Made by a program: the position numbers and the translations under genes. Below are positions 7,888-46,000 of a stretch of 64,000 bases of DNA, piece by piece. The notes under the pieces were generated by a model. It worked only from the letters and a program-made list of their open reading frames with translations. It searched no databases and was not told where the DNA came from. The stretch lies in the IMG/VR virus record IMGVR_UViG_3300027608_000014, positions 32,001-96,000 of that record; one strand, 5' to 3'. Numbering within the stretch: the first letter of the stretch is position 1; every line of letters begins with the position of its first letter. This stretch comes from a virus.

Positions 7888-8050
7888 TGCGGCTAAAGCG
7901 GCCGAAGATAAGAAAAATAGATCAGAGGCAAATGAAACAGATGTCCTTTTAGATCCCCTCAAACAAATGATCAATCTACTTGCGAAGATATTATATGCCA
8001 TCCTCAATGGCACTGATATGCCTCTGACGAAGGTAAACCCCCAGCAGTAA
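7706..8050 (+). repeat. Imperfect tandem duplication (175-nt period) of the tape measure 3' end
   Basis: 7706-7880 and 7881-8050 align closely (e.g. GTCCTTTTAGATCCCCTCAA...CTACTTGCGAAGATATTATATGCCATCCTCAATGGCAC in both). Confidence 0.95.
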
Positions 8051-8055
8051 AACTT

Positions 8056-15838: not shown

Positions 15839-15846
15839 ATCCATTC

Positions 15847-31314: not shown

Positions 31315-31341
31315 ACCCGACCAGAAATGGTCGGGTTTTTT
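31315..31341 (+). terminator. Intrinsic terminator ending the structural module
   Basis: ACCCGACC-agaaat-GGTCGGGT then TTTTT. Confidence 0.85.
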
Positions 31342-31401
31342 GTTGTCGTGATGCAAAGAAGGTCCTTGCGTCGAATCGATTTCTTCGTATTCTTATGCCA
31401 C

Positions 31402-31866
31402 ATGAGAAAACCACTAACCGAAGAACAGAAAGCCAAAAATCGCATATATCGAATGGCCTACTATGAGAAAAATAAAGACCTTGAATTGGCCAGGGCAAAA
31501 GAGTACCAATCAAAAAATCGTGAGAAGCTCAATGATTACTACCGAGAGTATCATGCCAAGGATCGAGAGAAGAACAATGAGTATCATAGGCAATATCGAA
31601 AGGACAATCCTGATAAGATTGCCAGGATTGAGTTTGAGTCCAAAGCTAGAAATCCTCTGAAAGAATGGGCCAAGGATCAGTGCCAGAAGGCCGTTCGTCA
31701 GGGGCTCTTAAGTAGGCCAGATAAGTGCGATAGGTGTCCCACTGCATGCGTACCAGATGGACATCATGAAGATTACAGCAGGCCGTTGGATGTAGTGTGG
31801 CTGTGTCACACTTGTCACGCAGTTGCCGATCGATCTAGGAGGGCTAAGGAGAAAGCCACAAGGTAA
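31402..31866 (+). CDS. HNH-like endonuclease with basic helical N-terminus
   Basis: Likely ATG at 31402. RP..C..C...GHHEDYSRPLDVVWLC..CH motif. Confidence 0.75.
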   Translation: MRKPLTEEQKAKNRIYRMAYYEKNKDLELARAKEYQSKNREKLNDYYREYHAKDREKNNEYHRQYRKDNPDKIARIEFESKARNPLKEWAKDQCQKAVRQGLLSRPDKCDRCPTACVPDGHHEDYSRPLDVVWLCHTCHAVADRSRRAKEKATR

Positions 31867-31966: not shown

Positions 31967-32032
31967 ATGTCGCAAGACAAAAGTCTTCATCGAGCTGAAC
32001 GTCGAATCAGCGAGTACCTTCTTCGCGGCTAA
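31967..32032 (+). CDS. Possible 21-aa peptide MSQDKSLHRAERRISEYLLRG
   Basis: ATG after an AC-rich leader (CAACAC); too short to verify. Confidence 0.25.
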   Translation: MSQDKSLHRAERRISEYLLRG

Positions 32033-32132
32033 GCGATGATTTCTTTTCTCACCAACATACATCCGTAAGAAGCGGAAGTGTTGGCGTCGTTCCACTCACC
32101 TTTTTTTGTCGTTAGTGCGACGTTAAACATCC

Positions 32133-32216
32133 CGGTGCTTGGGCACTGTTAGCTGGGTTCAATTCCTAGCGAGGTCACTAAGCCCAAGGCGTTCAATCGA
32201 AAGATTGGGAATGATC
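32133..32216 (+). ncRNA. Pistol-like ribozyme 1 (variant with inserted T-loop hairpin)
   Basis: P1 CGGTG/CACTG. Loop CTTGGG pairs perfectly with CCCAAG (32183-88), preceded by CTAAG and followed by GCG. P3 TTCAATC/GATTGGG, junction AA, P2 GGTCA/TGATC. The AAA linker is replaced by a GCTGGG-TTCAATT-CCTAGC hairpin. Confidence 0.55.
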
Positions 32217-32249
32217 CAAACAAACACAGCCCCACAAGGGGAGGCGACG

Positions 32250-32495
32250 ATGGCCGACTCCATCGTTAGGTCAGAACGTGACCTATTCGAAGAAACCCTC
32301 ACTGCAGCCCTCAAGGGCCTGCGCCTCGGCAAGATGGCAAAGGTTCAGGTAATCGAGCTCCCCGAGGAGTTTGCCCTCGTAATTGACCGGAAGCACCTGC
32401 TCCGGTATCGGGGGGTGGGCCCAAAGGCCGTCGCGGAGTTTGTGGAAAACCTGAGCGAGAGATTGGATGGGTGCAAGGTGTTCTTCTCCACCTGA
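32250..32495 (+). CDS. Hypothetical protein (alternative in-frame start at 32211)
   Basis: ATG 32250 has a GGGGAGG Shine-Dalgarno. GC-rich codon usage. Confidence 0.55.
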   Translation: MADSIVRSERDLFEETLTAALKGLRLGKMAKVQVIELPEEFALVIDRKHLLRYRGVGPKAVAEFVENLSERLDGCKVFFST

Positions 32496-32520
32496 CACCA
32501 ACTGAAGGTTCGATCCCTTC

Positions 32521-32586
32521 CGTCGTTCGTGCGACGTTAAACAGCATACTAGGCACGAAGCGTCCACTCACTCGAGTGGGGATATG
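32521..32586 (+). ncRNA. Pistol self-cleaving ribozyme 2
   Basis: CGTCG-TTCGTG-CGACG (P1), TTAAACAG, P2 CATA, CTAGG, pseudoknot CACGAA, GCG, P3 TCCACTC/GAGTGGG, junction GA, P2' TATG. Matches the pistol layout element for element except GA in place of GU at the cut site. Confidence 0.8.
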
Positions 32587-33630
32587 ATCAAAATTATCAC
32601 AGAGACGCAGGCCCTCTTAATGGTCTGCACTCCCGAAGACCGGATTAAAGGTCTTGTCGTAGTTCACAGCGGCGTGTTCCACGCCGACGATGTGTTCTTC
32701 GTCGCCTTCCTCACGCTGGTCAGTCCCAGCATTCAGATCGTCCGGACTCGCAAGAGCGAGATCATTGAGGCGGCGGAGATCGTGGGCGATGTTGGTGGCA
32801 TCTGCGCCATCAATCAAAACCGCTACGACCACCACCAGAAGGGTGGGGCCGGTGCGCGCCTGAACGGAGTGCCCTTTGCGAGCTTCGGCTTGATCTGGTC
32901 GCACACAGGCTGGACGCTGGACCTGATCGGCACCGTGCTCAGGGGCGGCGGTCAGTACAGCGCCATCGCTCGGATAGTCGACGAGTCGCTGGTCCAGGCG
33001 ATCGACGCGTCGGACTGCGGCTTCACGTCGGCCGCCAGCGACCCTTTCGCGGATGCCACTCCGCGCTACTCGCTGAGTATGGCCATCAGCGCGTTCAATC
33101 CGGACTGGTCGGAGGACGACCAGGACTTCGACGCCGCCTTCGCCAGGGCCGTCGAATTCGCACAGATGATTCTCCGTCGAGAGATCATCAGCGCGGCGGG
33201 GCAGGTCGAAGCGACGTTGGTGGTCAAGCAGGCAATCACCGAGCAGACGGACGAGCCGGAGATCTTGATCCTCAATCGGTTCTGCCCTTGGCAGAATACG
33301 GTCCTGCGATGCGCCGACGTGGTGAAGTTCGTTGTCTTCCCTTCGGAGACTGGCGACTGGCGCGTGCAGGCAGTGCCCGTCTACTCTGGCTCGTACGAGA
33401 CCAGGATGTCCCTTCCGGCAACCTGGGCAGGCCTCCGCACGGCGAAACTCGCAGCGGCGGTTCGCGCCAGTGGCGGATCGATCGGGGACGACGAGGCGGC
33501 GTTCTGCCACGACAAGCTCTTCATCGGTGGGGCGACCACCTTTGAAGGAGCCATGCAGATGGCTCGCGCCGCCCTGCCAAAGGTTGCTGAGGTCAGCATC
33601 GATCTCACGGATCTCCGTGAGCGGGCCTAG
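32584..33630 (+). CDS. MYG1 family (DHH-like) 3'-5' RNA exonuclease
   Basis: HSGVFHADD, IVRTR, DVGG, YDHHQ, ASFGLIW, IDASD, FNP, R..LP..WAGL, FCH..FIG motifs. Confidence 0.9.
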   Translation: MIKIITETQALLMVCTPEDRIKGLVVVHSGVFHADDVFFVAFLTLVSPSIQIVRTRKSEIIEAAEIVGDVGGICAINQNRYDHHQKGGAGARLNGVPFASFGLIWSHTGWTLDLIGTVLRGGGQYSAIARIVDESLVQAIDASDCGFTSAASDPFADATPRYSLSMAISAFNPDWSEDDQDFDAAFARAVEFAQMILRREIISAAGQVEATLVVKQAITEQTDEPEILILNRFCPWQNTVLRCADVVKFVVFPSETGDWRVQAVPVYSGSYETRMSLPATWAGLRTAKLAAAVRASGGSIGDDEAAFCHDKLFIGGATTFEGAMQMARAALPKVAEVSIDLTDLRERA

Positions 33631-33687
33631 CAAGCCCGTGCAGTTATCTCCCGCCCCGAAAGGGGCGGGACACTTTCCGGGTTATCC

Positions 33688-34311
33688 ATGAACCCAGTAA
33701 TAAAATGGAAGTTGCCGAAAGGCATAGAAAGGCACACCATGACGTGTACCTCGTATATCCGGGTTAAGGGCCCCGTGAAAGCCCTCAAAGTCTGCAACTG
33801 GTGCGGCCCAGATGCAGAAGACCCGCAGCCGCAGCAGTTGTTCCTCGTGGCGGGGGAACAGGATTCGTTTGGGACAGAATGGCACGAGGTGTGCCAGGCC
33901 TGCATCGACGCTGGCAACGTCGCCTCCGAGACGGCGCTCGAGGTCCGAATCGCCAAGATGGTGGAGAAGCTCGGCAGTGAGCAGTCCGATACGGACTTCT
34001 ACGTCGCGGCGCTGGGCAGCCGCGACACGGTGGACGAGTGCGCCATCGTTCGGGGAGCGACGAACGCAGCCCATATGTTTGTCCGCTGGGAGGACATCGC
34101 CGCCAACAAGGGCGACTACCTCTACTCAGAGGCGCTCCGCATCGCCACTGACGACGACCGGAGCACCGTCGTCAGGTTCCGGAAGGACCGGGACGAGGAG
34201 GAGCGGCGGTACTGGGCCAAGCAGGATGAGCTGGAGGAGCTGGGGGAGCTGGAGGATCGAGATGCTCAGGATGAGCAGGATGAGCAGGATGAGGAAAGGG
34301 AGGAAGCATGA
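33688..34311 (+). CDS. Hypothetical protein (CxxC motifs, acidic tail)
   Basis: GC-rich ORF with QDE repeats. Confidence 0.6.
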   Translation: MNPVIKWKLPKGIERHTMTCTSYIRVKGPVKALKVCNWCGPDAEDPQPQQLFLVAGEQDSFGTEWHEVCQACIDAGNVASETALEVRIAKMVEKLGSEQSDTDFYVAALGSRDTVDECAIVRGATNAAHMFVRWEDIAANKGDYLYSEALRIATDDDRSTVVRFRKDRDEEERRYWAKQDELEELGELEDRDAQDEQDEQDEEREEA

Positions 34312-34559
34312 GCGCCTCCTACGCAACAGAGGACCTCCGCAAGCTCCTCGTCGCGATCCTCCGCAAGGAGCCGCGACAAGCCAAGATCGCCCTTATGGCG
34401 GTGACCCTCACAGGGGACACCCTCACCATAAAGGGCCAACTGGAAGACTGGATCCACTCCAGCCTCCAGGCCCTCAGCCAGAAGCGAGCTCCACGCCCGC
34501 CCTCGACTGAGCTCAAGAGGATCGCGAAAGCGCTCCTCGACCACCACTTCCCTGGTTAA
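34308..34559 (+). CDS. Hypothetical protein
   Basis: ATGA overlap and GGAGG Shine-Dalgarno. Confidence 0.55.
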   Translation: MSASYATEDLRKLLVAILRKEPRQAKIALMAVTLTGDTLTIKGQLEDWIHSSLQALSQKRAPRPPSTELKRIAKALLDHHFPG

Positions 34560-34574
34560 TAATGGGAAGGTTCG

Positions 34575-34656
34575 GGTCTGCCTTCGGGTGGTCGCCGTTG
34601 TTAGTGATTTATCCTTACGGATACTTCCTACAACGCGACCACACCGAAGGCAGACC
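34575..34656 (+). other. Long imperfect hairpin A (family of three)
   Basis: GGTCTGCCTTCGG...GTGGTCGC.GTTGT...ACAACGCGACCAC.CCGAAGGCAGACC. Confidence 0.8.
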
Positions 34657-34777
34657 AGGAGACATGGCGTGTTGGTTTCATATACCCTTTTTTAGGTATC
34701 AAAGACTTTCGGCACCTTGAGTGTCACGCAGTAGGCCCTCCCTTGGCCTAACCATATGGGATTAGAAAAACGTTACC

Positions 34778-35149
34778 ATGAAAATCATGAACGTCAGTGC
34801 AGTGTTGGTTGCGGTTGTAGGTCTCATGCTTGGTGCATGCGATAAAGACGGTGCGATTAGTACCTCGATTAAGAAAGAGGAGGTCCGACACAAGGAGGCA
34901 ACCTCCGCTGAGAAAGCGCGGCACCTCAAAGAGGTCAGGGACATTAAAAACGCTGAGGCGTGGCAGAGCCTGAAGCAGAAGATGGAAGCTGCCAAGGCCA
35001 CCGTTGCCGCTGATGGCGAGAGCCTGAAACAGAAGATGGAAGCGGCCAAGGCCACCGCCGCCGCTGAGGGCGAGAGCCTGAAACAGAAGATGGAAGCGGC
35101 CAAGGCCAAGGCCTCGCGCTGGAGCTTCACCCCCAGTGCCAACCCGTAA
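34778..35149 (+). CDS. Lipoprotein with 20-aa repeats
   Basis: Signal peptide ending in lipobox LGA-C; three copies of (E/Q)SLKQKMEAAKA (60-bp repeat). Confidence 0.7.
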   Translation: MKIMNVSAVLVAVVGLMLGACDKDGAISTSIKKEEVRHKEATSAEKARHLKEVRDIKNAEAWQSLKQKMEAAKATVAADGESLKQKMEAAKATAAAEGESLKQKMEAAKAKASRWSFTPSANP

Positions 35150-35151
35150 AT

Positions 35152-35313
35152 ATGGACGCCTCACCAAATAACAAGAAGGTCAACCGGATGACGGCCGAAG
35201 CTCTTCGGATCGCTCTCTCCGTCGCCAGTGAAACTGGCAACATCGACGAGAGAGGTCGCCCCATGTCGGCTAACGCTCGCCATCTAATGGCAGCGCTGGC
35301 GGCGAAGAGCTAA
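35152..35313 (+). CDS. Small hypothetical protein (53 aa, not in ORF track)
   Basis: MDASPNNKKVNRMTAEALRIALSVASETGNIDERGRPMSANARHLMAALAAKS, starting 2 nt after the upstream stop. Confidence 0.5.
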   Translation: MDASPNNKKVNRMTAEALRIALSVASETGNIDERGRPMSANARHLMAALAAKS

Positions 35314-35362
35314 GAGGCTCTCCAACAAATATCCAGTGGGCCGGTGCGCCCACTGCACTTTC

Positions 35363-35424
35363 CGTGTAGAGCGCAGCCCTTTTAAGGCTGAGGTTGCTGG
35401 TTCAAATCCAGTCCTACGCGACTA
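35363..35424 (+). tRNA. D-armless tRNA-Lys(UUU)-like RNA
   Basis: Acceptor CGTGTAG/CTACGCG, 4-nt linker AGCG with no D arm, anticodon arm CAGCC-CTTTTAA-GGCTG, T arm GCTGG-TTCAAAT-CCAGT. Ends ACTA rather than ACCA. Confidence 0.65.
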
Positions 35425-35690
35425 TTTATGCAACAGCAAATGTTGTTGCTTCTGGGACTTGGCCCAGAAGTACCGTCCCTGAAACGCAAAGTGCAACCCT
35501 GCGAGCGGATGCGCTCTCTGTTTCAGGAGATGAGGAATGCGGCTGCGAAAGCCTGAGGATCTACTGGGCATGGGAGCCCAGCCCTTTCGGGTGGTTGCGT
35601 TGTTAGTAACTTGTCGCAAGACATTTAACTACACAACGCAATCACTTGGAGGTAGACCGGCAATGAGGCGTGTATACTTACAGATTCCTT
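35425..35690 (+). ncRNA. Unassigned multi-hairpin structured RNA (includes hairpin B, 35586-35650)
   Basis: Several stems (CTTCTGGG/CCCAGAAG, CCTGAAAC/GTTTCAGG, CTGGGC/GCCCAG, an 18-bp stem with a GCAA apical loop) between tRNA genes; no convincing ORF. Confidence 0.5.
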
Positions 35691-35765
35691 TTCTTTACAG
35701 GTCAGCAACCTTTCCCCCAAAACCATCAGAAATCTAGAATCTCAAATTCTTCTGATTACTAATTT

Positions 35766-35842
35766 GCAGCCATAGCTCAGTCGGATAGAGCAGAAAACTT
35801 CTAATTTTCAGGTCGTTGGTTCGATCCCAACTGGCTGCACCA
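35766..35842 (+). tRNA. tRNA-Arg(UCU)
   Basis: Canonical cloverleaf GCAGCCA...TGGCTGC A CCA with anticodon loop CTTCTAA. Confidence 0.95.
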
Positions 35843-36020
35843 TTCTCTCAGTTCAGAGTTACGCCCTGAATGAAGCCCTCTCCGCAAGGGGCCATAAATC
35901 GTGAGATATCGCCTAAGCCCGATACTCCACGTCACTTTCGTCACTTAACGGTGACCCAAACAAAACAACAACCAAAACAACCAGTGCAACTAAAACAAAA
36001 ACAAGAAGTAAAAAGTAAGC

Positions 36021-36181
36021 AATGTAGCCCCTCAAAGAAGAGGCTTGTGGACGACTTCCAAACCGACAAGAATTCTATGAGCAAGATGGAGCTGGTCATT
36101 TCAATGACCGCCTTCTGCATGGTAACTGGACCCGTCTATTTTGTGATCTGGTACCTCAAGCATTTTTCATTCATTGAATAA
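36021..36181 (+). CDS. Small membrane protein (start uncertain, within ORF 35870-36181)
   Basis: Hydrophobic C-terminus MELVISMTAFCMVTGPVYFVIWYLK. The 5' part of the called ORF looks like AC-rich leader or structured RNA. Confidence 0.3.
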
Positions 36182-36225
36182 AGCAAATAACAGAACCAAA
36201 CAAACAACATAGGAGACTGCATAAC

Positions 36226-36567
36226 ATGTCAGAAACCAATGAAGGGTTAAAGGCGCTATCACTTTTGACCATGACGCTAAAGCCAGAAGCGACAGCGCCT
36301 AAGCCAGAAGCGACAGCGCCTAAGCCCAAGGCAAAACCCAAGGCAAAACCCAAGGCAAAACCCAAGGCAAAACCCAAGGCAAAACCCAAGGCAAAACCCA
36401 AGGCAAAACTGCCAAAGCGTAAGCTGAAGTTTAGGCCCAGGACGCTTACGGGGCGGTTGATTCGCCCAGTAAGGCGAGCCCTTTACTGGGCCCGCGAGTG
36501 CTGTAAAGCACTCGTAGCAGGATTACGCGGCAAAAAGTATCCGAAGAATCGGATGGAACTGCCGTAG
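36226..36567 (+). CDS. Basic histone-like protein with PKAK repeats
   Basis: Two KPEATAP repeats and seven PKAK repeats (12-bp CCCAAGGCAAAA, 36325-36408). AGGAG upstream. Confidence 0.6.
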   Translation: MSETNEGLKALSLLTMTLKPEATAPKPEATAPKPKAKPKAKPKAKPKAKPKAKPKAKPKAKLPKRKLKFRPRTLTGRLIRPVRRALYWARECCKALVAGLRGKKYPKNRMELP

Positions 36568-36596
36568 GCTTAGTGTCAGGAGGAGCTTTTTCGTTT

Positions 36597-36631
36597 ATGG
36601 CCACGGCTAGCTGGTAGCTAGCCGTGGTCAT
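36597..36631. other. 16-bp near-perfect inverted repeat
   Basis: ATGGCCACGGCTAGCT-ggt-AGCTAGCCGTGGTCAT with no U tract. Confidence 0.7.
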
Positions 36632-36648
36632 TGTCTTGCAATAATCAG

Positions 36649-36987
36649 ATGAATAAATACCCATGGGATTGTCTAGAATGCGTATATCTAGGACACCATA
36701 ACGGCGCAGACCTCTATGCCTGCCCCGGAAACAATAATAATCCAACAGTTACAGCGGTCTTCAGTACAGAGGTCGGTGACTACGTGCATAGCCCAGTCAA
36801 GAGGATCGACTCCTCAGGCATTCTCACTGTAGCCCTATCCTACGCTCGCCAGCAGGGGTACTTGGATAGCAGTGATAGGTCCACTGACCGCCTCGCCCCA
36901 TTGAACGATTTTGAAATTTTAGAAGCTAAGTATCCAGTGCCAGTTATCGGTGACGTTCCGGATTTGAATCCGGTAATCACCAACTAA
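36649..36987 (+). CDS. Hypothetical phage protein
   Basis: Likely ATG at 36649. Y..DC..C.YLG.....DLY.C motif of small phage proteins. Confidence 0.55.
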   Translation: MNKYPWDCLECVYLGHHNGADLYACPGNNNNPTVTAVFSTEVGDYVHSPVKRIDSSGILTVALSYARQQGYLDSSDRSTDRLAPLNDFEILEAKYPVPVIGDVPDLNPVITN

Positions 36988-37023
36988 GACAACCAAGACA
37001 ACCAAGACAACCAACCTAATCAA

Positions 37024-37683
37024 ATGAAAAAACAAATCGAAGAGAAACAACAAGAACAGGATCGTGCAATGATGGATAAAACTATCGCAACCTTCGAAAG
37101 ACAGATCGCCCACAAGAACGATCAGGGAAACTTCCTGATCCGTGATGGGGAAGTCACACTGGGGCGACTAGTCCTCGCCGCCGGTGATGCAATGCTCAAG
37201 GTTCAGCAAGAGCTGATTCGTATGTGGCAAACTCAAACTCGAGCTCAGGAGGACACCCTCCATAAATTTTTCGCTCCTCAGGCTTCGTCGCCCATTCGCC
37301 AATCAACTCGATTGGCTGATTTCATCGACGAGGATGCTGCTCGGTTCAGAGTTACAGCCAAGAACTATCGCGCTGCGGGCCAAACTGATCTGGCCAAGAA
37401 GGTTACCAATATGTGTATCGCATTTGATGCAATGGCTGCCGGTCTGCGGAAAAACTTCGACGAGTCTGGCAGCCTGTTTGCCAAGTACAATTTTGCTGTT
37501 CCGGCGACGAAGGAGAATCTTCAGAATGACCACAATCTCAGTCCTATCAGCAATGTTGATGATGATAAAGGAGAACCAGATCAGGACTCCCTGGACGCCT
37601 GGAAGGCGAGCCTCCATCAGGACGACGTGGTGCACAGTATCCGGGGACGGTTTGCTGAGCACGTAGCGTCTCAGGGCATCTAA
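37024..37683 (+). CDS. Hypothetical protein
   Basis: 219-aa ORF after an AC-rich leader with a 9-bp AAGACAACC x3 repeat. Confidence 0.6.
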   Translation: MKKQIEEKQQEQDRAMMDKTIATFERQIAHKNDQGNFLIRDGEVTLGRLVLAAGDAMLKVQQELIRMWQTQTRAQEDTLHKFFAPQASSPIRQSTRLADFIDEDAARFRVTAKNYRAAGQTDLAKKVTNMCIAFDAMAAGLRKNFDESGSLFAKYNFAVPATKENLQNDHNLSPISNVDDDKGEPDQDSLDAWKASLHQDDVVHSIRGRFAEHVASQGI

Positions 37684-37697
37684 TCTCATGCAGTCAA

Positions 37698-38010
37698 AGG
37701 CGTCAGCCTCCTGCCTGTAGGGTTTCGCCCATACGAAGGGAGGACAGAGGAATGGAGCCATCTTCACCCTCGAAGGCCCGGACGTAGGGAAGTGTCAAAG
37801 GATGGAATTTCCTAATGGCGTTACTTTCCGACTTAAAGTAAAGTCGGTGGTGGAGGGTGCAATAGCCGAAACGCAAGTGCGCCCCTGTAAATGCGAGATC
37901 GGCTCAACTTCACTGTTGGGTCGGTCTCGCGATTTAGGCTCACATCTTATGATCCAATGTAGGCTTCCAGAGCTGAGATTGGGAAGGGTAGTGGGTCCAA
38001 ATCGCGAGAC
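37698..38010 (+). ncRNA. Unassigned structured RNA region
   Basis: Multi-stem unit closed by GGCGTCA/TGGCGTT, plus long rods GCGAGATCGGCTCAAC/GTTGGGTCGGTCTCGC and GTCTCGCGATTT/AAATCGCGAGAC. Confidence 0.45.
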
Positions 38011-38137
38011 AAAAACTCGCTGCGCCTAAAAGGCGCTTGTTCTGCAAACTCAAATTGAAACTAAGAACGTGGCGCCCAATGGGTCTCTGCGACATCAAAG
38101 TAATATTCAAAGTTTTACAGAGCAAATTCAACAGCAG

Positions 38138-38358
38138 AGTCGAATAGCATAAAAGGATTCATTTAGCCGATCCCAACTCTAACATGATATGCGGGTTCAA
38201 TTCCCGCCCTCGGTGCTCAGCTCATCTGATCGTTTACTTAGTAACGATTCCTTTAAAATGGAAACAGGTGGGCTGAGCACCGAGGTAGCACAATGGTAGT
38301 GCGCGTGCCATGAAACTGAGGTTGGTTAATTTAGGGTCCGACAAAAGCCAGTTCGACT
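38138..38358 (+). ncRNA. Large YrlA-like (Y RNA) permuted tRNA mimic
   Basis: Terminal stem AGTCGAA/TTCGACT. Internal order is T arm (GCGGG-TTCAATT-CCCGC), closed 21-bp acceptor helix, TA, D arm (GCAC-AATGGTA-GTGC), which is the YrlA topology. Confidence 0.7.
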
Positions 38359-38378
38359 ATTCTATGAAATGAATAACG

Positions 38379-38415
38379 GGTGGGGTCAGCGGCAATGCTG
38401 ACCCCACCTAATTTT
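38379..38415 (+). terminator. Terminator-like hairpin after the YrlA-like RNA
   Basis: GGTGGGGTCAGC-ggcaat-GCTGACCCCACC then TAATTTT. Confidence 0.7.
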
Positions 38416-38462
38416 GTTAGTACTTTTATCAAGAAACTTAATGCAAGTTAAACGATAAAATC

Positions 38463-39218
38463 ATGAGTAAGAAAGCACACGAGCTGATCGCCGTTCAGGG
38501 TGACCTCACCGCAAAAACCAAAGCAATCCTTCTGGAGACCTTTAAGGCCTTCTCAGGAAAACCAGAGCTCTTCCTCGGCTCCTACAAAGCAACTAAGGCC
38601 TACAGTGCCGATCGATCGCAGGGAATCGACGCTGAGGAATTCAAGGATCTCACTACAACTGTGCCTGAGCGAATCGGCTATACTCTGGCTGTGGTCAAGG
38701 ACGAGATCAACGCACGCGCATCCTTGGATGCCACCAATTGCCTAGCCAAGGCAGATCTTATTATCGATGGAGTGGTACTCGCCACGGGCATTCCAGCGGT
38801 ATCACTCTTGCTCCTCGAGCAGCAGTGCGGTGCCTGGCTTGAGCTCTTCACATCAGCCCCAACCCTAGCGAACGGCGTCGCCTGGGAATTGGATCCCGAC
38901 AAGGGACCGGACATCTACGTCACTAAGCATCCTATTGTCAGAACGAAGACCGAAAAGGTTTCTTCTGCAGTAGTCTTGGCACCTGCCACTCAACAGCATC
39001 CGGCTCAGGTCAAGGAAGTCGTCAATGATGTTCCTGTGGCCAGCATCACGGAGACTCAGTGGAGCGGCATGGTCAGTTCTGCCTACAAACACGGCGGAGC
39101 GGAAAAGGTACAGAAGCTGAAGACAGCGGCTAAAGAAGCACGTCAGCGAGCCAACAATCAGGAAGTCGTCATCTCCACTCTCGGAGATGTAGTCTTTAAC
39201 TACCTGATGAAGAGCTAA
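38463..39218 (+). CDS. Conserved hypothetical protein (DUF7873-like, recalled similarity)
   Basis: K.HELIAV..D, F..KPELF.G, D.TN..AKAD..IDG, P...LL.LE, TKTEK...VL.PAT..HPAQV, WSG, A.KEARQRAN motifs. Confidence 0.6.
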   Translation: MSKKAHELIAVQGDLTAKTKAILLETFKAFSGKPELFLGSYKATKAYSADRSQGIDAEEFKDLTTTVPERIGYTLAVVKDEINARASLDATNCLAKADLIIDGVVLATGIPAVSLLLLEQQCGAWLELFTSAPTLANGVAWELDPDKGPDIYVTKHPIVRTKTEKVSSAVVLAPATQQHPAQVKEVVNDVPVASITETQWSGMVSSAYKHGGAEKVQKLKTAAKEARQRANNQEVVISTLGDVVFNYLMKS

Positions 39219-39400
39219 GAATTTTTAATTTTGTCTTGGGAGGAACAATGCGCCATCACGTTGAAAGCGCTTATTAAGCCCGGTGAAAGCCCGACCAGAT
39301 CTTCCGTTCCTCTCTTCCTCTTGCAGGAGCTATACTGACTATGGCTGGCAAATAACTAACCAACAACCTGGCGCCTCAGCAGACTCTGGGGCAAATTTTT

Positions 39401-39478
39401 CACGTAACAGCTCAACCTGGTAGAGCACCTGTATGCAGAACAGGACGTTGCTGGTTCAAATCCAGTCCTACGTGACCA
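39401..39478 (+). tRNA. Atypical tRNA with GCA anticodon (Cys-like)
   Basis: D arm GCTC/GAGC, anticodon arm CCTGT-ATGCAGA-ACAGG, T arm and encoded CCA. Non-canonical: C8, A32, A73 discriminator, A7-C mismatch, extra base between T and acceptor stems. Confidence 0.65.
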
Positions 39479-39534
39479 CTTTCAGTAAACCAGCAAAACC
39501 AACAAAAAAAAACAAAAACTAAAACAACAAAACA

Positions 39535-40056
39535 ATGACAACTACTGAGACCAATAAATACATCCGCCTGCTCCGGCGCCTGAAAACGCTGAACCATAGC
39601 TGGATCGAGGCGGCTGAGATACTGAAGAAAATTCGGGACGAGAGGCTGTACTTGGGAGAATACAGCTCCTTCAATCAGTTCTGCGCCTGCGAGCTGGGGA
39701 GAACCGACCTGAACATCCGCTATAAGATAAGGGCTGGGGAGATTGCTAAGGCAATCCACAGTGAGTTTGGTATCGCAATCTGTAACGACCATGCAGCTGC
39801 GTTAATTCCGCTAAGATCGGAGGAGCGTATCGCTGCCTTCAAGGAAGCGATGGCCTCGTCTGGGACAGGGATGCCGACGAAACAACAAATAAAAGAGGTA
39901 GTACAGCGAAGGGATGGCTCACCCCTGTTCTTGACTATCCATGCGTTGGTAAGAAAAGTGAAATGTCCAAAGGGGGTGTTTCTATCCCCAAAACGGTCCA
40001 AGCAGTTTGAGGAGGACCTGTTGTGGTTCATCCAGCAGTGGCTGGCAAATAACTAA
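39535..40056 (+). CDS. Putative DNA-binding protein
   Basis: L..IRDERLY..Y.SF..FC..ELG helical motif common in phage DNA-binding proteins. Confidence 0.55.
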   Translation: MTTTETNKYIRLLRRLKTLNHSWIEAAEILKKIRDERLYLGEYSSFNQFCACELGRTDLNIRYKIRAGEIAKAIHSEFGIAICNDHAAALIPLRSEERIAAFKEAMASSGTGMPTKQQIKEVVQRRDGSPLFLTIHALVRKVKCPKGVFLSPKRSKQFEEDLLWFIQQWLANN

Positions 40057-40117
40057 CCAACAAACCGGCACGTCAGCGGGCGTTGACCTTCGGGCGACTC
40101 TGGGGTACACTTTAATT

Positions 40118-40536
40118 GGGCCATAAAGGATTCGACTAATAGGTCAGATCTACAGCCACATGCAGAGGGACGACTTAGTTACCTCTTTAAACTCCTGAGA
40201 CAAAACTCAAACGCTAACGCGAATGACTCCGGCAACGGAAATGTGATCCAGGGCTACTTCGGTAGCTCTTCGGTCCGCACTCCGATGCTCGCTGCGGCCT
40301 AGTCCGCATCCGTCCTCTCTTCGACACCTGCTAAGGGAGAAGGACGACACCAGCAGGACGATGGTGGTGGATCCACTTTGGTACTGATCATACAGCAATG
40401 CTGCAGATCTGCGACTCGACCCACCTGGCAGCACATTTCCAGGGGACCTGTTAAGAGCGAATAATGAGATAAGCATGTAAACGCGGTAGAGTAAGACAGA
40501 TTAGGACCGGGCTCTCAGATGCCCGATGGTCCACCA
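40118..40536 (+). ncRNA. ssrA: tmRNA
   Basis: GGGCCAT/ATGGTCC acceptor with G3-U70, GGATTCGAC 5' motif and ACCA end. Tag ORF 40213-40302 reads ANANDSGNGNVIQGYFGSSSVRTPMLAAA. Confidence 0.9.
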
Positions 40537-40807
40537 TTTATACACTTGTCCGGTTAAAGTCCGGGCTACTCCGCCGCCCGCAAGGGCGACGGACACTTTC
40601 GCCTACTGGCATTCGTGTAAAACAGTAGGTTGCAACACAAGGCGACAGAAAAACTGATGTTTACATCAGCGGAAGCACAAGAAGAAATGAGACAATAGAT
40701 ACTCACTCCTGAAAGTGGCAAAGCTACGCTCTCGAGCCCTTTGCTAGCTCACGAGTTAAGATCGACCCGTGAGAGGTCCCTTAACTCATCTGACCACCTG
40801 TGTGGCT

Positions 40808-40848
40808 GTGCCATTACCCCCTAGCTAAGGGTGATGGCACTTTCTTTT
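40808..40848 (+). terminator. Intrinsic terminator ending the RNA cluster
   Basis: GTGCCATTACCC/GGGTGATGGCAC then TTTCTTTT. Confidence 0.8.
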
Positions 40849-40878
40849 AGTCAACCAACCAACAAAAAAAAATAACTA

Positions 40879-41124
40879 ATGTCAGCACTTTACTCGCAAG
40901 CACAGATTAAACTAACCGACGCTGAGATATTCGGGATCGTCATTGGTAAGCAGCGAAGGGAGATCGCTGCACTTGAGGCGCAGATAGACTCGCTCATCGC
41001 TCTCAGGAAGAGCGATCTTCTGGAGAAGAAGGAAATGGGTGAGAATATCGAACGACTGGAAGCGGAGATGATCAAGATCACCCATACCGCCCTCCCAAAC
41101 TTCAATACCGAGGAGCAGGGATAA
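40879..41124 (+). CDS. Small coiled-coil protein
   Basis: AC-rich leader; TAATG coupling to the next gene. Confidence 0.55.
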   Translation: MSALYSQAQIKLTDAEIFGIVIGKQRREIAALEAQIDSLIALRKSDLLEKKEMGENIERLEAEMIKITHTALPNFNTEEQG

Positions 41125-42071
41125 TGGGCGGAGGAGCATACAGTTCGGCCTCAAGAGGCGCAACCTATACCACCGCGAAAGCTACGGGCGCTTCGGTGTT
41201 CCGTCACATGGCGGATCTCAAGCAAGCAGGTAAGGCCCTTGTGGTTCACCCTCTGCTTGATCCCAGGCGTACCAACGAGGCGGGACGAGTTGTCCGCGAA
41301 AGCCGAGATAGTGACGAGCACCCCAACTCGTTACCAATCGCCATTATGCTCGACGTTACCGGCAGCATGTCGGATACGCTGAGAGTCTTCATTGACAAGC
41401 TACCCATCCTCATGAATCTTCTTGTTGATAAAATAGATATTGCCGATCCACACATCCTTTTTGGGTTTATTGGCGATGCCTACAGTGACAGAGTTCCACT
41501 TCAGGTGGGTAACTTTGAATCTGACAATCAGAAGATCGACGAGTGCTTCACGGCAGCAGTTCCTGAGGGCGGCGGGGGAGGACAGAACACTGAGTCTTAC
41601 GAGCTTGGTGCGTACTTCCTGGCGCGACACACCGAGCTGGACTCTCTTGATAAGCGGGGTAAGAAGGGGTACGTCTTCTTCACCGGAGACGAACTCCCCA
41701 AACAGTACGTGTCTCGAGGTCAGGTCAATTACCTGATTGGAGATACCCTGTTGGCGGATATTCCTATGGAGGACATCTTTGCCGAACTCAAAGAGAAGTT
41801 CAACGTGTTCTGGATATTTCCAGGACAAACGTCGAACTACTATGACGCCTCAATTAATAAGCGACTCAAAAGGCTGTTCGGAAAGGGCCTGATCAAGCTA
41901 CCCAATCCAAACGACATATGCGAAATGGTCGCAATGACCATCGCAGTCTGCGAGGGCGCCACTACGGAAGAGGCCAGAGCGGCATACCTCTCCTTTGGAG
42001 CTGATGCCAAAGGCGTAGCGGCGGCTGAGACAGCCCTAGCCCAAGTGATTAGGGAGCGAAGCTTCGCTTAG
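41124..42071 (+). CDS. Stand-alone VWA-domain protein
   Basis: MIDAS motif LDVTGSM, IGD...D..PLQ, GGGG...ESY, F.GDE. Confidence 0.8.
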   Translation: MGGGAYSSASRGATYTTAKATGASVFRHMADLKQAGKALVVHPLLDPRRTNEAGRVVRESRDSDEHPNSLPIAIMLDVTGSMSDTLRVFIDKLPILMNLLVDKIDIADPHILFGFIGDAYSDRVPLQVGNFESDNQKIDECFTAAVPEGGGGGQNTESYELGAYFLARHTELDSLDKRGKKGYVFFTGDELPKQYVSRGQVNYLIGDTLLADIPMEDIFAELKEKFNVFWIFPGQTSNYYDASINKRLKRLFGKGLIKLPNPNDICEMVAMTIAVCEGATTEEARAAYLSFGADAKGVAAAETALAQVIRERSFA

Positions 42072-42115
42072 CAATCTGGACTCCCTCCTTAGACAGGGGG
42101 GGGTCCAGATACTTT

Positions 42116-42310
42116 ATGAACAAAACACTATCACTTCTACTGCTTCTCTCACTAACGTCCTGTAGCAAGATCGCTGCAGCACAGCCCACTTTTGCAGTGG
42201 TGATTGCTCAGGGCATTACGCTCTGTGTAATATTATTACTGTCACGTCCTAAAAAAAAAAAAGAATCGAATTGTCACATCAAGCAGCCCAACAACCAATA
42301 CTTACAATGA
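42116..42310 (+). CDS. Small putative lipoprotein/membrane protein
   Basis: MNKTLSLLLLLSLTS-C lipobox-like leader plus a second hydrophobic segment. Confidence 0.45.
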   Translation: MNKTLSLLLLLSLTSCSKIAAAQPTFAVVIAQGITLCVILLLSRPKKKKESNCHIKQPNNQYLQ

Positions 42311-42558
42311 AATATACTTTAATTCACAACGGACAGCGCTACCTGATCCTAATGCAAGATGTCTACGGCATCAAAGGTCTATACAGGAGCAGAAGCTTTA
42401 TTGCGGAGATCCTGTCCAGGTTTACGCCATTCTATCAGCTGAATCCTGTCTGGGGAACCAGGTACAGGTGGCTCGCCCAACATCGGCTGGAGTTCCTGCG
42501 TAACAGTAACAGAGAGAACTCGATCTGGGATCGCACCGCTCGAAAGGAGAGAGCTTGA
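42307..42558 (+). CDS. Hypothetical protein
   Basis: Likely ATG at 42307 overlapping the upstream stop (ATGA). Confidence 0.45.
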   Translation: MKYTLIHNGQRYLILMQDVYGIKGLYRSRSFIAEILSRFTPFYQLNPVWGTRYRWLAQHRLEFLRNSNRENSIWDRTARKERA

Positions 42559-42773
42559 CCACCTTGGATGTGGTTACGGCACTGAAGAGGGGAAAACCGG
42601 GAGGCCTCTCATCTGTGGCAGAACTGCGGTGGTGCAAGCCACTAGTGTTCGCAAAGATCGATCCCGAAATCCAGATCGTAGCAAACCGGTACATCAAGAA
42701 TCGCACCAGTGATGGCGCAGGATGGTCCGTCCTAAAGAACTGGCTCTATAAAAACCCACCAGAGGTAACATGA
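42555..42773 (+). CDS. Hypothetical protein
   Basis: TTGA overlap with AGGAG upstream. Confidence 0.45.
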   Translation: MTTLDVVTALKRGKPGGLSSVAELRWCKPLVFAKIDPEIQIVANRYIKNRTSDGAGWSVLKNWLYKNPPEVT

Positions 42774-42852
42774 AAACACATGTCACAAGCAGACAATTGA
42801 GTGTGTCTGCTCCACACTTGCATCGCTCAACATATAGCAGGCCGTAGGGCCT

Positions 42853-42957
42853 GCTCCCTCGCCAACTATCCCATGGATGGTTGTGCTCGTTAGTTCAAAG
42901 AGATTTATTTTCTACGAATTAGCAGCACAACCATACATGGGTAGTTGGCGAAGGAGC
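42853..42957 (+). other. Long imperfect hairpin C upstream of nrdJ
   Basis: GCTCC.TCGCCAACTATCCCATG.ATGGTTGTGCT...AGCACAACCAT.CATGGGTAGTTGGCGA.GGAGC. Confidence 0.8.
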
Positions 42958-43059
42958 GCTGGGTTTAGTAGATACAAGTTCTTTTTCTTTAGCTATTAGA
43001 ATTTTCTAACCAATCCAGCTCGACTGGACAAGAGTTTCGGTGGAGACTATCCGCCCATT

Positions 43060-46000
43060 ATGTTCAAATCAAAAACCAAATCTAGCAAGCCCAAGGGACT
43101 AACCTTTACCAGAGAGTTTTCTTCATCACAAGTGTCTCCATATGAAGAACTTGAGTGGGAACGGCGCACCGCCGAGATCACCGATGACTCTGGCAAAACA
43201 ATTTTTAAACAGGAGAATGTCGAGGTTCCAAAGTCGTGGAGTGCACTGGCCACAAAGATTGCAGTCTCGAAGTATTTCTACGGCGACATCTCGAAGGGAA
43301 CTGACCCGAAAAAAGGTGGCCGTGAGAATTCAGTCAAACAGATGATTGGTCGAGTCACTGAGACCATGGCAGAGTGGGGCCGAAAAGACGAATACTTCGA
43401 CAGTGCCGAAAGCGCAGCAGCTTTCGAGGACGACCTCACCTGGCTGTGCCTTAATCAGTATGGCGCATTCAACTCTCCGGTGTGGTTCAACGTAGGTCTG
43501 TTTCAGAATTACGGGGTCAATGGGGGACAAGAAGGCAACTGGGTGTACAATCATAAGACCAAGGAGGCTGAGATCTGGAAGAACCAGTATGAGTATCCAC
43601 AAGGTAGCGCTTGCTTCATTCTTTCTGTTGACGATACCATGGAATCAATCATGGATCTTGCTAGAGCAGAAGCTATGCTCTTCAAATACGGCAGTGGAGC
43701 TGGCACTGATCTATCCACACTCCGCTCGACTCGCGAGAGGCTCAGTGGTGGTGGTAAGCCTTCAGGCCCGATGAGCTTCCTAAAGATCTACGATCAAGTT
43801 GCTGGGACGGTCAAGAGCGGTGGAAAGACTCGTAGGGCCGCAAAGATGAACACGCTCAAGGACTGGCACCCTGACATTGAGGAGTTCATCGAGGCCAAAT
43901 CTAAGGAAGAGAAAAAAGCCTGGGCCCTTATTGAGCAAGGTTACGATCCATCGTTCAACGGTGAGGCCTATGGGTCGGTGATGTACCAGAATGAAAATCT
44001 ATCTGTAAGAGTTAGTGATCGATTCATCGAAGACGCCCTTTGCGGTCGTCCGTGGCAAACACACAACGTGAAAGACGGAAAGGTCTGTGAGACCAAAGAT
44101 GCAAAAACTTTGCTTCGTAAGATCGCTGAGGGAACACATCTCTGTGGCGATCCTGGAATGCAGTTCGACAACACGATCCACAAGTGGCACACCTGCAAGG
44201 GCACAGATCGGCAGCACTCCACAAATCCGTGCTCCGAATATCTCTTCCTGAATAACACAGCGTGTAACCTCGCCTCCCTTAATCTGCTCAAGTTCAAGAA
44301 GTCAGATGGCTCTTTTGATGCGCTTTTGTTCCAAAAGGCCTGCCGAATCTTCATCACCGCCCAGGAAATTCTGGTCGATCGAGCTTCATATCCTACGAAG
44401 GCAATCGCAGAGAACTCTCACATCTTTAGGACTCTAGGTCTTGGCTTTGCCAACTTGGGTGCCCTGATTATGAGCTATGGATACGGCTATGATAGCGATG
44501 AAGGTCGCAATCTTGCTGGATTGATTACCTCTCTGATGACGGGAACCGCTTACGAACAGTCAGCGCTGATTGCCTGGGCAAAGAGTCCGTTTGATGGCTA
44601 TAATGATGCTAGATGCTCTGGTGTCCCAGTGCCGCTTAAGCCCAGCAATCGTGCATCTATGCTGGAGGTTATTGATCTGCACCGCACTCATGCCCATCAA
44701 CTGTCTGAGTCCGTTAAGTCAATCGGCAGCCTTTCAGAGCTAGCTGTTGCGTCTACTAGCGCTTGGAAGTCAGCCTACGTCCATGGAGCGTCATTTGGTT
44801 ACCGCAACGCCCAGGTCACCGTCCTTGCGCCCACCGGCACGATCGGCTTCCTCATGGATTGCGATACCACCGGTATTGAGCCCGACATCGCGCTGGTGAA
44901 GTACAAGTTGCTGGCTGGCGGCGGTATGCTGAAGATCGTCAATCAGACGATCGGATCGGCGCTGAATACACTGGGTTACGACGACGAGCAGATCGCTCGG
45001 ATCATTGCCCACATCGAGAGATACGATACGATCGAGAACGTGCAGGGCGAAACTCCGTTGGGACTCGGCACCGGTGCGCATTATAGTGTTAATCCCTCGG
45101 ATCGCTCCAAGTCGACCTTCCATTCCGGTCTCAATCCTGAGCACCTGCCAGTGTTCGACTGCGCTTTCAAGGCGGCCAGCGGCACCAGAAGTCTGCACTA
45201 CATGGGGCATCTTAAGATGATGGCTGCCTGTCAGCCCTTCCTGAGTGGTGCCATCTCGAAGACGGTCAATCTTCCGGAGGCTGCTACTGTAGAAGATATT
45301 ATTAACACCTACGTTGAGGGCTGGAAGTTAGGACTCAAAGCGATTGCCATCTATCGAGACGGCAGTAAGCGATCAGCTCCTCTGAGTACAAAGAGCTCGA
45401 AGACAGCAGGGGTCGTAGAAGTTATGACTGACACCATCGACTTATCCGAGATTGAGGATATGAGATCATACATCGCCAGTCTTGAATTGGCTCATGGAGC
45501 CCCAGTCAAAAAGAGACTCCCTGATACTCGATCAGCGATCAACCACAAGTTCGAGGTCGGTGGACATAAGGGTTACATTAGCGTCGGTCTCTTCGAGAGC
45601 GGCAAGCCTGGTGAAATCTTTATTTCTATGGCCAAAGAAGGATCAACCATCGGTGGACTCATGGATACTGTTGCCACGCTGACCAGCATCTCGCTGCAGT
45701 ATGGTGTGCCGCTGGAGTCTCTGGTCAGCATGTTTGCGTATCAGCGATTCGAGCCGTCAGGCTTCACCAGGAATCCTGATGTCCGCAATGCAACTTCGAT
45801 CATCGACTACGTCTTCCGCTGGCTCGGGTGCCTCTTTATTCCAGGATACAAGCAGTCTCCAGAAACTGATACTCCTGCCCTAAAGAACGAGCTCCCGCAA
45901 TTAGTGGAGTTGCTGGCTCCCCTACCGGCAGCTGAAGTAAGTCCTGTAAGACGATCTATTTACCTATCTGACCCTTGCAACAAATGCGGATCGTCAAAGG

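Follow-up and report, generated by a model that had tools for sequence, protein, structure and literature searches.

A probable plasticity zone of RNA genes in a phage genome, and a pistol ribozyme that holds the start codon of a MYG1 gene

Why should eleven kilobases of a phage genome be given over so largely to RNA genes, and do these genes work together? The question is raised by the island at 32.1-43.1 kb of a 64,000-nt stretch of viral DNA, termed here the window, which corresponds to bases 32001-96000 of the linear IMG/VR virus sequence IMGVR_UViG_3300027608_000014 (148,872 bp, estimated to be approximately 75% complete). No other 11-kb stretch of the 149-kb record is as poor in open reading frames (ORFs): counting those of at least 50 aa, 24% of the island is ORF-free, against 6.7% elsewhere in the record. 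An original prediction, made from the sequence alone, had listed two ribozymes, a MYG1 exonuclease, transfer RNA (tRNA) and tRNA-like genes, a Y-RNA-like mimic, a transfer-messenger RNA (tmRNA) and several unassigned RNAs here, and each of these RNA elements, together with MYG1, was indeed located within the 11 kb at or near the place proposed for it. The same prediction had read them as one coordinated counter-defence module that protects phage translation. The island is indeed centred on RNA and a shared theme is plausible, but coordination is largely contradicted by the independent assortment of the parts described below.

We instead propose, with a probability of roughly 60%, that the island is an accessory RNA-gene plasticity zone whose self-contained cassettes are gained, lost and exchanged separately. 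Cassette 1 would comprise a variant pistol ribozyme, a small ORF, a T-arm hairpin, a second pistol ribozyme and MYG1; cassettes 2-5 would be the tRNA and tRNA-like slots, the mimic with its DUF7873 gene, the tmRNA with its own promoter, and the long hairpins. The parts are most likely independent transcription units, of which two tight pairs persist while the other slots are refilled over time.

Turnover of the RNA cassettes among relatives

The comparison set consisted of a close lineage of four contigs, L008 (172 kb), L009, L015 and L016, which were reached via MYG1 homologues, and of two distant contigs, L010 and L014. The island is flanked by a conserved glycosyltransferase and structural block on one side and by a ribonucleotide reductase gene on the other. 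In L008, L009, L015 and L016 these flanks are 80-98% identical, and gene order is shared from the glycosyltransferase block to the reductase. The borders of the island and the RNA genes that turn over between them are as follows.

31327..31866, plus strand: HNH/endonuclease-like ORF at the left border of the island (phrog_2340 'endonuclease', E = 1.2e-21)
35363..35424, plus strand: tRNA-like 1, D-armless and Lys(UUU)-like (sequence reading; partial tRNA match at 35355-35412, 29.6 bits)
35766..35842, plus strand: canonical tRNA-Arg(UCU) (Rfam, 70.4 bits at 35766-35839, and ARAGORN, Arg(tct))
38138..38409, plus strand: permuted tRNA-like RNA of YrlA topology, the mimic (fold z and descriptor match; RNA at 38138-38358, terminator at 38378-38409)
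38463..39218, plus strand: DUF7873 protein gene (PF25283, E = 2e-57)
39401..39478, plus strand: tRNA-like 2 with a GCA anticodon, Cys-type (sequence reading; partial tRNA match at 39409-39466, 37.2 bits)
40083..40536, plus strand: promoter-like site followed by the tmRNA gene at 40118-40536 (promoter scan; RF00023, 66.2 bits against a gathering score of 47)
43060..46062, plus strand: class II ribonucleotide reductase gene at the right border (Pfam; 95% nucleotide identity with L008 resumes here)

Contigs L008 and L016, which are 80-95% identical to the window at the nucleotide level, are without 38060-39457, a clean 1.4-kb gap that covers the mimic, DUF7873 and most of tRNA-like 2. Both retain the last 22 nt or so of tRNA-like 2, joined at a CAAAT microhomology, and this 3' stub indicates that the deletion happened in L008/L016. 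At the slot of tRNA-like 1 the shared CACTTTC spacer is followed in these two contigs by 132 nt of unrelated sequence. Their Arg slot (13426-13502 in L008, 11234-11310 in L016) holds a non-homologous tRNA, also with a UCU anticodon but irregular, its D arm being reduced and its variable region long; here the anticodon has been kept and the gene replaced. The tmRNA is itself a mosaic: when 40118-40536 is compared with L008 16485-16902, the tag and pseudoknot core are about 88% identical and encode the same tag, and in L008/L016 both ends of the molecule (acceptor, T arm and P2) have been replaced together relative to the window. The first pistol ribozyme occurs in L008, L009 and L016 and is absent from L015, where it has been replaced. 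Lastly, in the distant contig L010, whose MYG1 is 56% identical, neither a pistol nor a tRNA nor a tmRNA lies within 10 kb of that gene, although the long hairpin h1 is kept. An additional 357-aa ORF made of periodic repeats of about 15 nt was seen in L016 (12209-13282) relative to both L008 and the window.

The idea of one co-inherited module is contradicted by these separate losses and replacements in L008, L015, L016 and L010. Synteny across relatives, which had been put forward as the check on it, largely shows parts that assort independently, and what persists are two pairs, pistol with MYG1 and mimic with DUF7873.

The tRNA-Arg(tct) was the sole ARAGORN call in the island and is the only cloverleaf there on which two independent programs agree. 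Among the Arg codons of the phage AGA is the commonest (25.5%), and among its Pro codons CCA (41%), in agreement with the tRNAs Arg(UCU) and Pro(UGG) that it encodes; most simply, the canonical tRNA-Arg(UCU) serves the commonest Arg codon. A second small tRNA cluster with Pro-UGG, Thr-UGU and one weaker tRNA match lies at 142133-143574 of the record, about 70 kb downstream, and the island is therefore not the sole tRNA locus of this phage.

The two tRNA-like genes were missed by ARAGORN and match the tRNA model at positions 9/10-63 only. In tRNA-like 1 a 7-bp acceptor stem, a Lys-type UUU anticodon loop and a T arm are present, the D arm is missing and CUA replaces CCA. All four arms are found in tRNA-like 2, with perfect anticodon, D and T arms, a C8, an extra base between T stem and acceptor, and an encoded CCA. 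Both share an identical 26-nt 3' half. Such atypical RNAs may act as decoys or substitutes. In front of tRNA-like 2, positions 39342-39380 duplicate 40040-40078, that is, the 3' end of a 173-aa ORF and the tmRNA leader, in a copy that lacks the TTGACC-containing insert supplying the -35 box of the tmRNA. Recombination may have left this duplication as a scar, or it may be a leader that RNA cassettes share.

The promoter-like site of the tmRNA, TTGACC-17-TACACT, is placed 6 nt upstream of the gene. The acceptor stem GGGCCAU/AUGGUCC contains the G3-U pair and is followed by ACCA, and the tag of 29 residues ends in MLAAA; ARAGORN reads the identical tag in L008 and L016. The T loop of the window copy is 8 nt long (UCUCAGAU) and departs from the canonical 7-nt UUCRANY, whereas L008 and L016 have the canonical GGGUUCGACUCCC. 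Expressed from its own promoter, the tmRNA would rescue ribosomes stalled on broken phage or host messengers by way of the host SmpB.

Outside the comparison set, the GenBank phage collection contained no near-identical phage (tblastn with MYG1 returned a single weak fragment), and scans of IMG/VR with MYG1, the phrog_2971 protein and the reductase found no close relatives. The class II ribonucleotide reductase of the record is nearest to those of large uncultured phages; two reductase loci (49% identity) had no RNA genes nearby, with tmRNA-model matches below threshold only.

Pistol ribozymes and the MYG1 start codon

The left part of the island is occupied by the elements of cassette 1.

32108..32129, plus strand: hairpin with a UUAAACA linker, a 22/23-nt copy of P1 and linker of pistol 2 (read from the sequence)
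32132..32216, plus strand: variant pistol ribozyme 1 (alignment and pair counts; 100 bits with model R1)
32250..32495, plus strand: 81-aa ORF between the ribozymes (its start, with a GGAGG ribosome-binding site, is kept in L015)
32504..32520, plus strand: isolated T-arm-like hairpin GAAGG-UUCGAUC-CCUUC that abuts pistol 2 (read from the sequence; the L008 copy is identical)
32521..32586, plus strand: pistol ribozyme 2 (RF02679, 49.2 bits against a gathering score of 34.5, model positions 1-68)
32584..33630, plus strand: MYG1/UPF0160 of the DHH superfamily, a putative 3'-5' RNA exonuclease (PF03690, E = 3.3e-67)

Pistol 2 is found at the same place in L008, L015 and L016, all three of which have exactly the sequence of the window copy. 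Its P1, P2 and P3 helices are fully paired and its 6-bp pseudoknot is formed by UUCGUG/CACGAA. The start codon of MYG1, ATG 32584, sits in the 3' strand of P2 (UAUG), and the predicted cut falls 2 nt upstream of this AUG. This codon is the real MYG1 start, for the MYG1 proteins of the phage clade, down to 54% identity, conserve the N-terminal extension that begins at it. The cleavage junction of pistol 2 reads GA (32581-32582) and does not match the consensus GU, which is present in the L014 homologue.

A pistol with the MYG1 AUG inside P2 was found in four contigs of this lineage, the window included, and in L014. The latter resembles the window in MYG1 only (about 66% nucleotide identity) and is otherwise an unrelated backbone; its pistol is a hairpin-linker variant with the canonical GU junction, and differs from that of the window in P1, pseudoknot and P3. 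A covariance model, R1, was built from the pistol copies of the window lineage and L014. With it no pistol was detected beside 80 more distant metagenome MYG1 loci (mostly at or below 46% identity), nor in L010 (56%). The link between pistol and MYG1 is thus real but confined to one phage clade.

Self-cleaving ribozymes yield 2',3'-cyclic phosphate and 5'-OH ends. Folded pistol 2 would hold the AUG in P2, and after self-cleavage only 4 bp would retain the 3' product. Once released, this product would be a nearly leaderless, 5'-OH MYG1 messenger with its AUG freed and uncoupled from the upstream RNA. No description of a start codon inside the P2 helix of a pistol was found in the literature searched, and as far as could be searched there, the start-codon coupling of pistol and MYG1 is new. 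Reports of translation initiation through ribozyme cleavage are limited to eukaryotic RNA viruses (bioRxiv 10.1101/2024.05.16.594327), and theta ribozymes, which resemble those of hepatitis delta virus (HDV), adjoin phage tRNAs and process tRNA 3' ends (PMC10879173). Pistol 2 has in common with both a small ribozyme placed directly 5' of a coding region or beside a tRNA-like structure. The RNA-virus examples are hammerhead, HDV and twister ribozymes; the island differs from them in using a pistol, in a DNA phage, with the AUG inside the helix of the ribozyme itself.

The MYG1 protein matches its Pfam profile (PF03690) over the full length (227.8 bits, positions 2-318 of 318), and H28, H33, D35, D36, D69, D82, H83 and H84 are invariant in the alignment of this intact gene. 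Eukaryotic Myg1 is a 3'-5' RNA exonuclease (PMC6582341). In the 165-kb contig L010, MYG1 is flanked within 2-5 kb by a PolyA_pol-family enzyme of CCA-adding type (6327-8072) and by RtcB (15316-16506).

No Rfam match is returned for pistol 1 (32132-32216), even at E<=5. A separate part of the original prediction had placed a pistol core at 32133-32216, its linker occupied by a T-arm-like hairpin, and alignment and covariation back a pistol-type fold. The helices are P1 (GGUG/CACU), a pseudoknot between the loop CUUGGG and CCCAAG, P2 (GUCA/UGAU) and P3 (UUCAAUC/GAUUGGG); the T-arm-like hairpin replaces part of the A-rich linker, and the scissile junction is AA. Pistol 1 can be aligned, column for column, to the Rfam-positive pistol, to its orthologues in L008 and L016, and to the element upstream of MYG1 in L014. 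P1, the 6-bp pseudoknot, P2 and P3 are kept throughout this alignment, and over all five helices, pseudoknot included, 99.2% of the cells are paired. Fourteen pairs have changed on both sides, a count equalled by none of 500 shuffles, and controls with slid partners are only 29-44% paired. Taken together, the pairing, the two-sided changes and the controls identify pistol 1 as a genuine pistol-type fold. Its cleavage activity is uncertain because the junction is AA and not GU.

Pistol ribozymes have been described as associated with phage DNA and enriched near phage genes, with a function that is unknown (PMC4604425). The island copies share with that class (RF02679; PMC4604425) P1, the 6-bp pseudoknot, P2, P3, the conserved core nucleotides and the phage association. 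They differ in their GA and AA junctions, in the hairpin linker of pistol 1 and of the L014 copy, and in the downstream start codon within P2.

Several observations touch the surroundings of the ribozymes. The loop UUAGUG of the hairpin at 32108-32129 is perfectly complementary to CACUAA at 32175-32180 inside pistol 1, so this hairpin could compete with the pistol 1 fold; the complementarity is not conserved, since L008 has a different hairpin there. The idea that pistol 1 produces a leaderless mRNA at ATG 32211 was considered and rejected, as L015, which has no pistol 1, keeps the ribosome-binding site and ATG corresponding to 32250. The 81-aa ORF at 32250..32495 matched nothing in the family libraries searched and gave weak leads only in the Atlas, and a comparison of the small ORFs of L014 and the window found them unrelated. 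A DNA pattern for the variant pseudoknot hit nine viral contigs, all of which resemble chance matches inside coding sequence. The G+C content of the region at about 32-35 kb (32000-35300) is 56-62%, against approximately 48% in the rest of the window, and by this composition the ribozyme-MYG1 segment looks horizontally acquired. The G+C-rich segment begins right after the HNH-endonuclease-like ORF (31327-31866), where G+C climbs from 47%.

The permuted tRNA mimic and DUF7873

The second persistent pair consists of the mimic and the DUF7873 gene. In YrlA RNAs a T arm, an acceptor-like stem-loop and a D arm follow one another and the ends close in a stem; these YrlA-class Y RNAs are encoded within a few kb of the Ro60/TROVE gene, on the same strand (PMC4201824). 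The mimic carries GUCGAA close to its 5' end and continues with the T arm; next come an acceptor-like stem of 21 bp, topped by a branched cap, and the D arm, and a long stem closes the whole. The RNA at 38138-38358 folds at -94.8 kcal/mol (z = -7.4), is followed by a strong terminator and sits between terminator-like sites. Its GUCGAA at 38139-38144 fits GNCGAA, with the final G of GNCGAAN0-1G displaced by one base. The mimic thus shares with YrlA-class RNAs (RF02553; PMC4201824) the permuted arm order, the closing stem and a GNCGAA-like motif, and is set apart from them by lying beyond the Rfam model, by its 21-bp stem with branched cap, by having no CCA, and by a DUF7873 partner in place of Ro60. 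The acceptor-like stem is also much longer than at other DUF7873 loci. On the window mimic the Rfam YrlA model (RF02553) gave a 9.7-bit local match to the T arm only, whereas the other DUF7873-linked RNAs match this model over its full length at 30-43 bits, below its gathering score of 69.

A profile scan of IMG/VR for DUF7873 yielded 190 loci, of which 80 were kept, and these were searched with a permuted-tRNA descriptor, which asks for a T-arm hairpin and a 7-nt strand, then, no more than 220 nt on, the perfect complement of that strand, and a D arm after 2 further nt. In its strict form the descriptor matched on the strand of the gene at approximately 69 of 78 loci, usually 130-500 nt past the stop codon; it gave one spurious match in 1.18 Mb, and the window mimic was its sole match in the 149-kb record. 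Relaxed, it matched 79 of 80 loci, the lone miss having just 98 nt of downstream sequence, and 58 of these relaxed matches encode NCCA after the acceptor strand. The flanks of each element pair with each other as a closing stem (median -28.8 against -19.2 kcal/mol for non-cognate flanks, p = 3.5e-14). No protein-coding neighbour of DUF7873 is common to more than 9 of 78 loci. An initial count of canonical T loops within 800 nt upstream of DUF7873 (17 of 81 loci only) had wrongly hinted at no link, the RNA being normally downstream. The window and L012, which is the closest DUF7873 relative with context (56% identity), share the unusual order in which the RNA is upstream of the gene.

Among five near-complete genomes that carry DUF7873, four have no TROVE/Ro60 gene, and in the fifth some 200 kb separate DUF7873 from Ro60, which has YrlA matches of its own next to it. 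A 358-kb IMG/VR phage (G008, reached via L077) carries a canonical Ro60/TROVE gene and several YrlA-model matches at 327972-330086, with a DUF7873-mimic pair some 200 kb off. The mimic and DUF7873 probably form a mobile two-gene RNA-protein unit that is independent of Ro60. An AF2 model of the DUF7873 protein has a pLDDT of 93; Foldseek against the PDB, a wide VIA-align search, a PDB sequence profile and the Atlas returned generic helical matches or the family itself, and a search for longer, fused forms found none. A literature search found no paper on DUF7873 or on its pairing with an RNA. The 219-aa ORF upstream of the mimic was considered as a divergent DUF7873 and was ruled out on comparison.

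Remaining features, rival explanations and meaning

The rest of the island is made up of hairpins, structured blocks and ORFs.

33688..34559, plus strand: ORFs of 207 aa (Cys-rich N-terminus, acidic tail) and 83 aa (orthologues in L008; no family match)
34565..34666, plus strand: long hairpin h1 (-60 kcal/mol; compensatory changes in L008/L016 and L010)
34778..35149, plus strand: 123-aa repeat-rich ORF with a lipoprotein-like signal peptide (sequence reading; diverges from L008)
35581..35660, plus strand: long hairpin h2 (96% identical in L008 and L016)
35870..37683, plus strand: four ORFs of 103, 113, 118 and 219 aa (no family named; orthologues in L008)
37684..38060, plus strand: structured non-coding block (z = -5.3; kept in L008 and L016, which lack the mimic)
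39535..40056, plus strand: 173-aa ORF (3' end and downstream sequence duplicated at 39342-39380)
40537..40878, plus strand: structured non-coding block 3' of the tmRNA (z = -4.5)
40879..42773, plus strand: ORFs of 81 aa and 315 aa (phrog_2971) and small ORFs (ORF list, family scans)
42848..42962, plus strand: long hairpin h3 (-73 kcal/mol; conserved in L008)

The three long hairpins h1, h2 and h3 are near-perfect, each of about 100 nt, and look like processing or termination signals; h1 may be a candidate processing site such as an RNase III target. In L010 h1 lies at 12597-12693, and in each genome it is found approximately 1-1.5 kb downstream of MYG1. Most of the island ORFs were left without a name by Pfam, PHROGs, NCBIfam and PADLOC, and in PADLOC the island proteins match no known defence-system family. 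Genes for Ro60/TROVE, RtcB, a PolyA_pol or CCA-adding enzyme, SmpB, an RNA ligase, a cyclase or a kinase-phosphatase were not found in the 149-kb record, which is about 75% complete.

A number of points weigh against the plasticity-zone reading. The comparison rests on one close lineage (L008, L009, L015 and L016) and two distant contigs, and no close relative whose contig extends over their position has lost the tmRNA or the pistol 2-MYG1 unit. Retention of these two and of the UCU anticodon points to selection on function and is compatible with a looser functional guild. The UCU retention and the RtcB and CCA-type neighbours in L010 are compatible with such a loose guild, and fall short of showing a coordinated system. 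Being identical in four contigs, pistol 2 gives no covariation of its own; the junctions of both pistols (GA and AA) deviate from the consensus GU, and their cleavage is predicted only. The tmRNA of the window has a non-canonical 8-nt T loop and was missed by ARAGORN. Ro60, RtcB or SmpB could lie in the missing quarter or so of the genome.

An ordinary codon-supplementing tRNA/tmRNA cluster amid mobile, decaying sequence, in which the atypical tRNA-likes are recombination pseudogenes and selfish or hitch-hiking elements of no benefit to the phage account for the ribozymes and the mimic, is in our judgement unlikely. Compensatory changes maintain both pistols as well as h1, the pistol-AUG arrangement recurs in the unrelated backbone of L014, viral contigs of great diversity keep the DUF7873-RNA pair and the catalytic motifs of MYG1 are intact. 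The tRNA-likes themselves speak on both sides: their identical 26-nt 3' halves and irregular junctions are what recombination would give, but tRNA-like 2 retains perfect anticodon, D and T arms and an encoded CCA. Other features that such a cluster would explain are the fit of the canonical tRNAs to the favoured AGA and CCA codons, the HNH endonuclease gene at the island border, the foreign G+C of the 32-35 kb segment and the frequent indel turnover.

In another reading, which we consider improbable, all the parts serve a single coordinated counter-defence system, through which the phage would go on translating when host ribotoxins attack, be they anticodon nucleases or endonucleases that cut mRNA or tRNA. 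The tRNA-likes would then replace or soak up the targets, MYG1 together with a host or phage ligase would trim damaged 3' ends, a mimic-DUF7873 particle would take up misfolded or cut RNA, and the tmRNA would free stalled ribosomes. All the parts do bear on RNA ends, tRNA shape or stalled ribosomes. Against this reading, they assort independently among near-identical relatives, and L010 has a MYG1 with no pistol, tRNA or tmRNA nearby. UUU and UCU anticodons are among the targets of anticodon nucleases. The resemblance of the island anticodons to such targets (PMC10264068, PMC11464382, PMC11555353) is suggestive only, even with the UCU anticodon retained where its gene has been replaced. The use of AGA and CCA codons accounts for the canonical tRNAs without any defence. 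Bacterial translation is not expected to accept tRNAs that lack a D arm or are irregular, which also speaks against this system. The exonuclease activity of eukaryotic MYG1 (PMC6582341) and the RtcB and PolyA_pol-family genes that adjoin MYG1 in L010 would suit it, whereas the record, in all its 149 kb, yielded no RNA ligase, kinase/phosphatase, CCA-adding enzyme, Ro60 or SmpB, and PADLOC gave no matches.

A shared theme of RNA-end processing and translation support is plausible all the same, because L010 places RtcB and a CCA-adding-type enzyme beside MYG1. We infer the biochemical activities of the parts and, with them, a common purpose in RNA-end processing or translation upkeep. Carried further, this theme leads to a speculative and rather doubtful picture of the island as a toolkit for RNAs with 2',3'-cyclic-phosphate and 5'-OH ends. 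The pistols would serve as start-codon gates, and cleavage would give a leaderless, decay-resistant MYG1 mRNA with a 5'-OH end; MYG1 would trim cyclic-phosphate or damaged 3' ends of tRNAs and mimics; and the DUF7873-bound mimic, the irregular tRNA-likes and the tmRNA would blunt RNA-cleaving defences of the host. The cassettes would be interchangeable members of a guild, swapped according to the local host ribotoxins.

A mis-assembled or chimeric sequence, which a linear, metagenome-derived record with G+C shifts within the island might suggest and which would make the clustering an artefact, is hardly credible, since the same gene and RNA order was assembled independently in at least four other ENA and JGI samples at 80-98% identity.

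How does the plasticity zone that we favour relate to known systems? Large phages such as the cluster C mycobacteriophages carry tRNA/tmRNA clusters. Like the island, these bring together tRNAs, a tmRNA and a Y-RNA-like mimic in an accessory region with indel turnover; the island is distinguished from them by a DUF7873 partner in place of Ro60/TROVE, by two pistols with MYG1 and by a single canonical tRNA. Mycobacteriophages carry Ro60 with YrlA (PMC4201824). Other phage tRNAs evade or neutralise tRNA-cleaving defences (PMC10264068, PMC11464382, PMC11555353), and the island RNAs likewise carry UUU and UCU anticodons of the kind that anticodon nucleases target. Those defence-evading tRNAs are, in contrast, functional and canonical with altered anticodon loops, whereas the Lys- and Cys-type RNAs of the island are irregular and missing in close relatives. 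Repair of tRNAs by phage T4 relies on Pnkp and Rnl1. Both this pathway and the bacterial RNA repair operon rsr-yrlBA-rtcBA (PMC7790460, PMC9879122) have a theme in common with the island, tRNA-like RNA together with enzymes that act on broken RNA ends, as does the RtcB near MYG1 in L010. The window record differs from them in being without ligase, cyclase or kinase-phosphatase, and its separate transcription units form no operon. Set against all of these kinds, the island is marked by its combination of elements, with no Ro60 or repair ligases found, by an AUG in a pistol helix, by a hairpin-linker pistol and by irregular tRNA-likes.

For the tRNA/tmRNA clusters already known from phages, opinion is divided between codon supply and a means of escaping tRNA-cleaving defences. 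The exchange of cassettes inside RNA genes that is seen here, with a domain swap in the tmRNA and a tRNA gene replaced under a kept anticodon, fits an arms race and is no proof of one. The most valuable leads are the start-codon coupling of pistol and MYG1 and the atypical DUF7873-mimic pair. The latter adds a copy in which the RNA is upstream, the acceptor stem oversized and the CCA lacking. The former gives pistol ribozymes a natural context, the start codon of an RNA exonuclease within a ribozyme helix on two unrelated phage backbones, and comes with a pistol subclass whose linker hairpin the Rfam model misses; with it, ribozyme-gated leaderless translation becomes directly testable.

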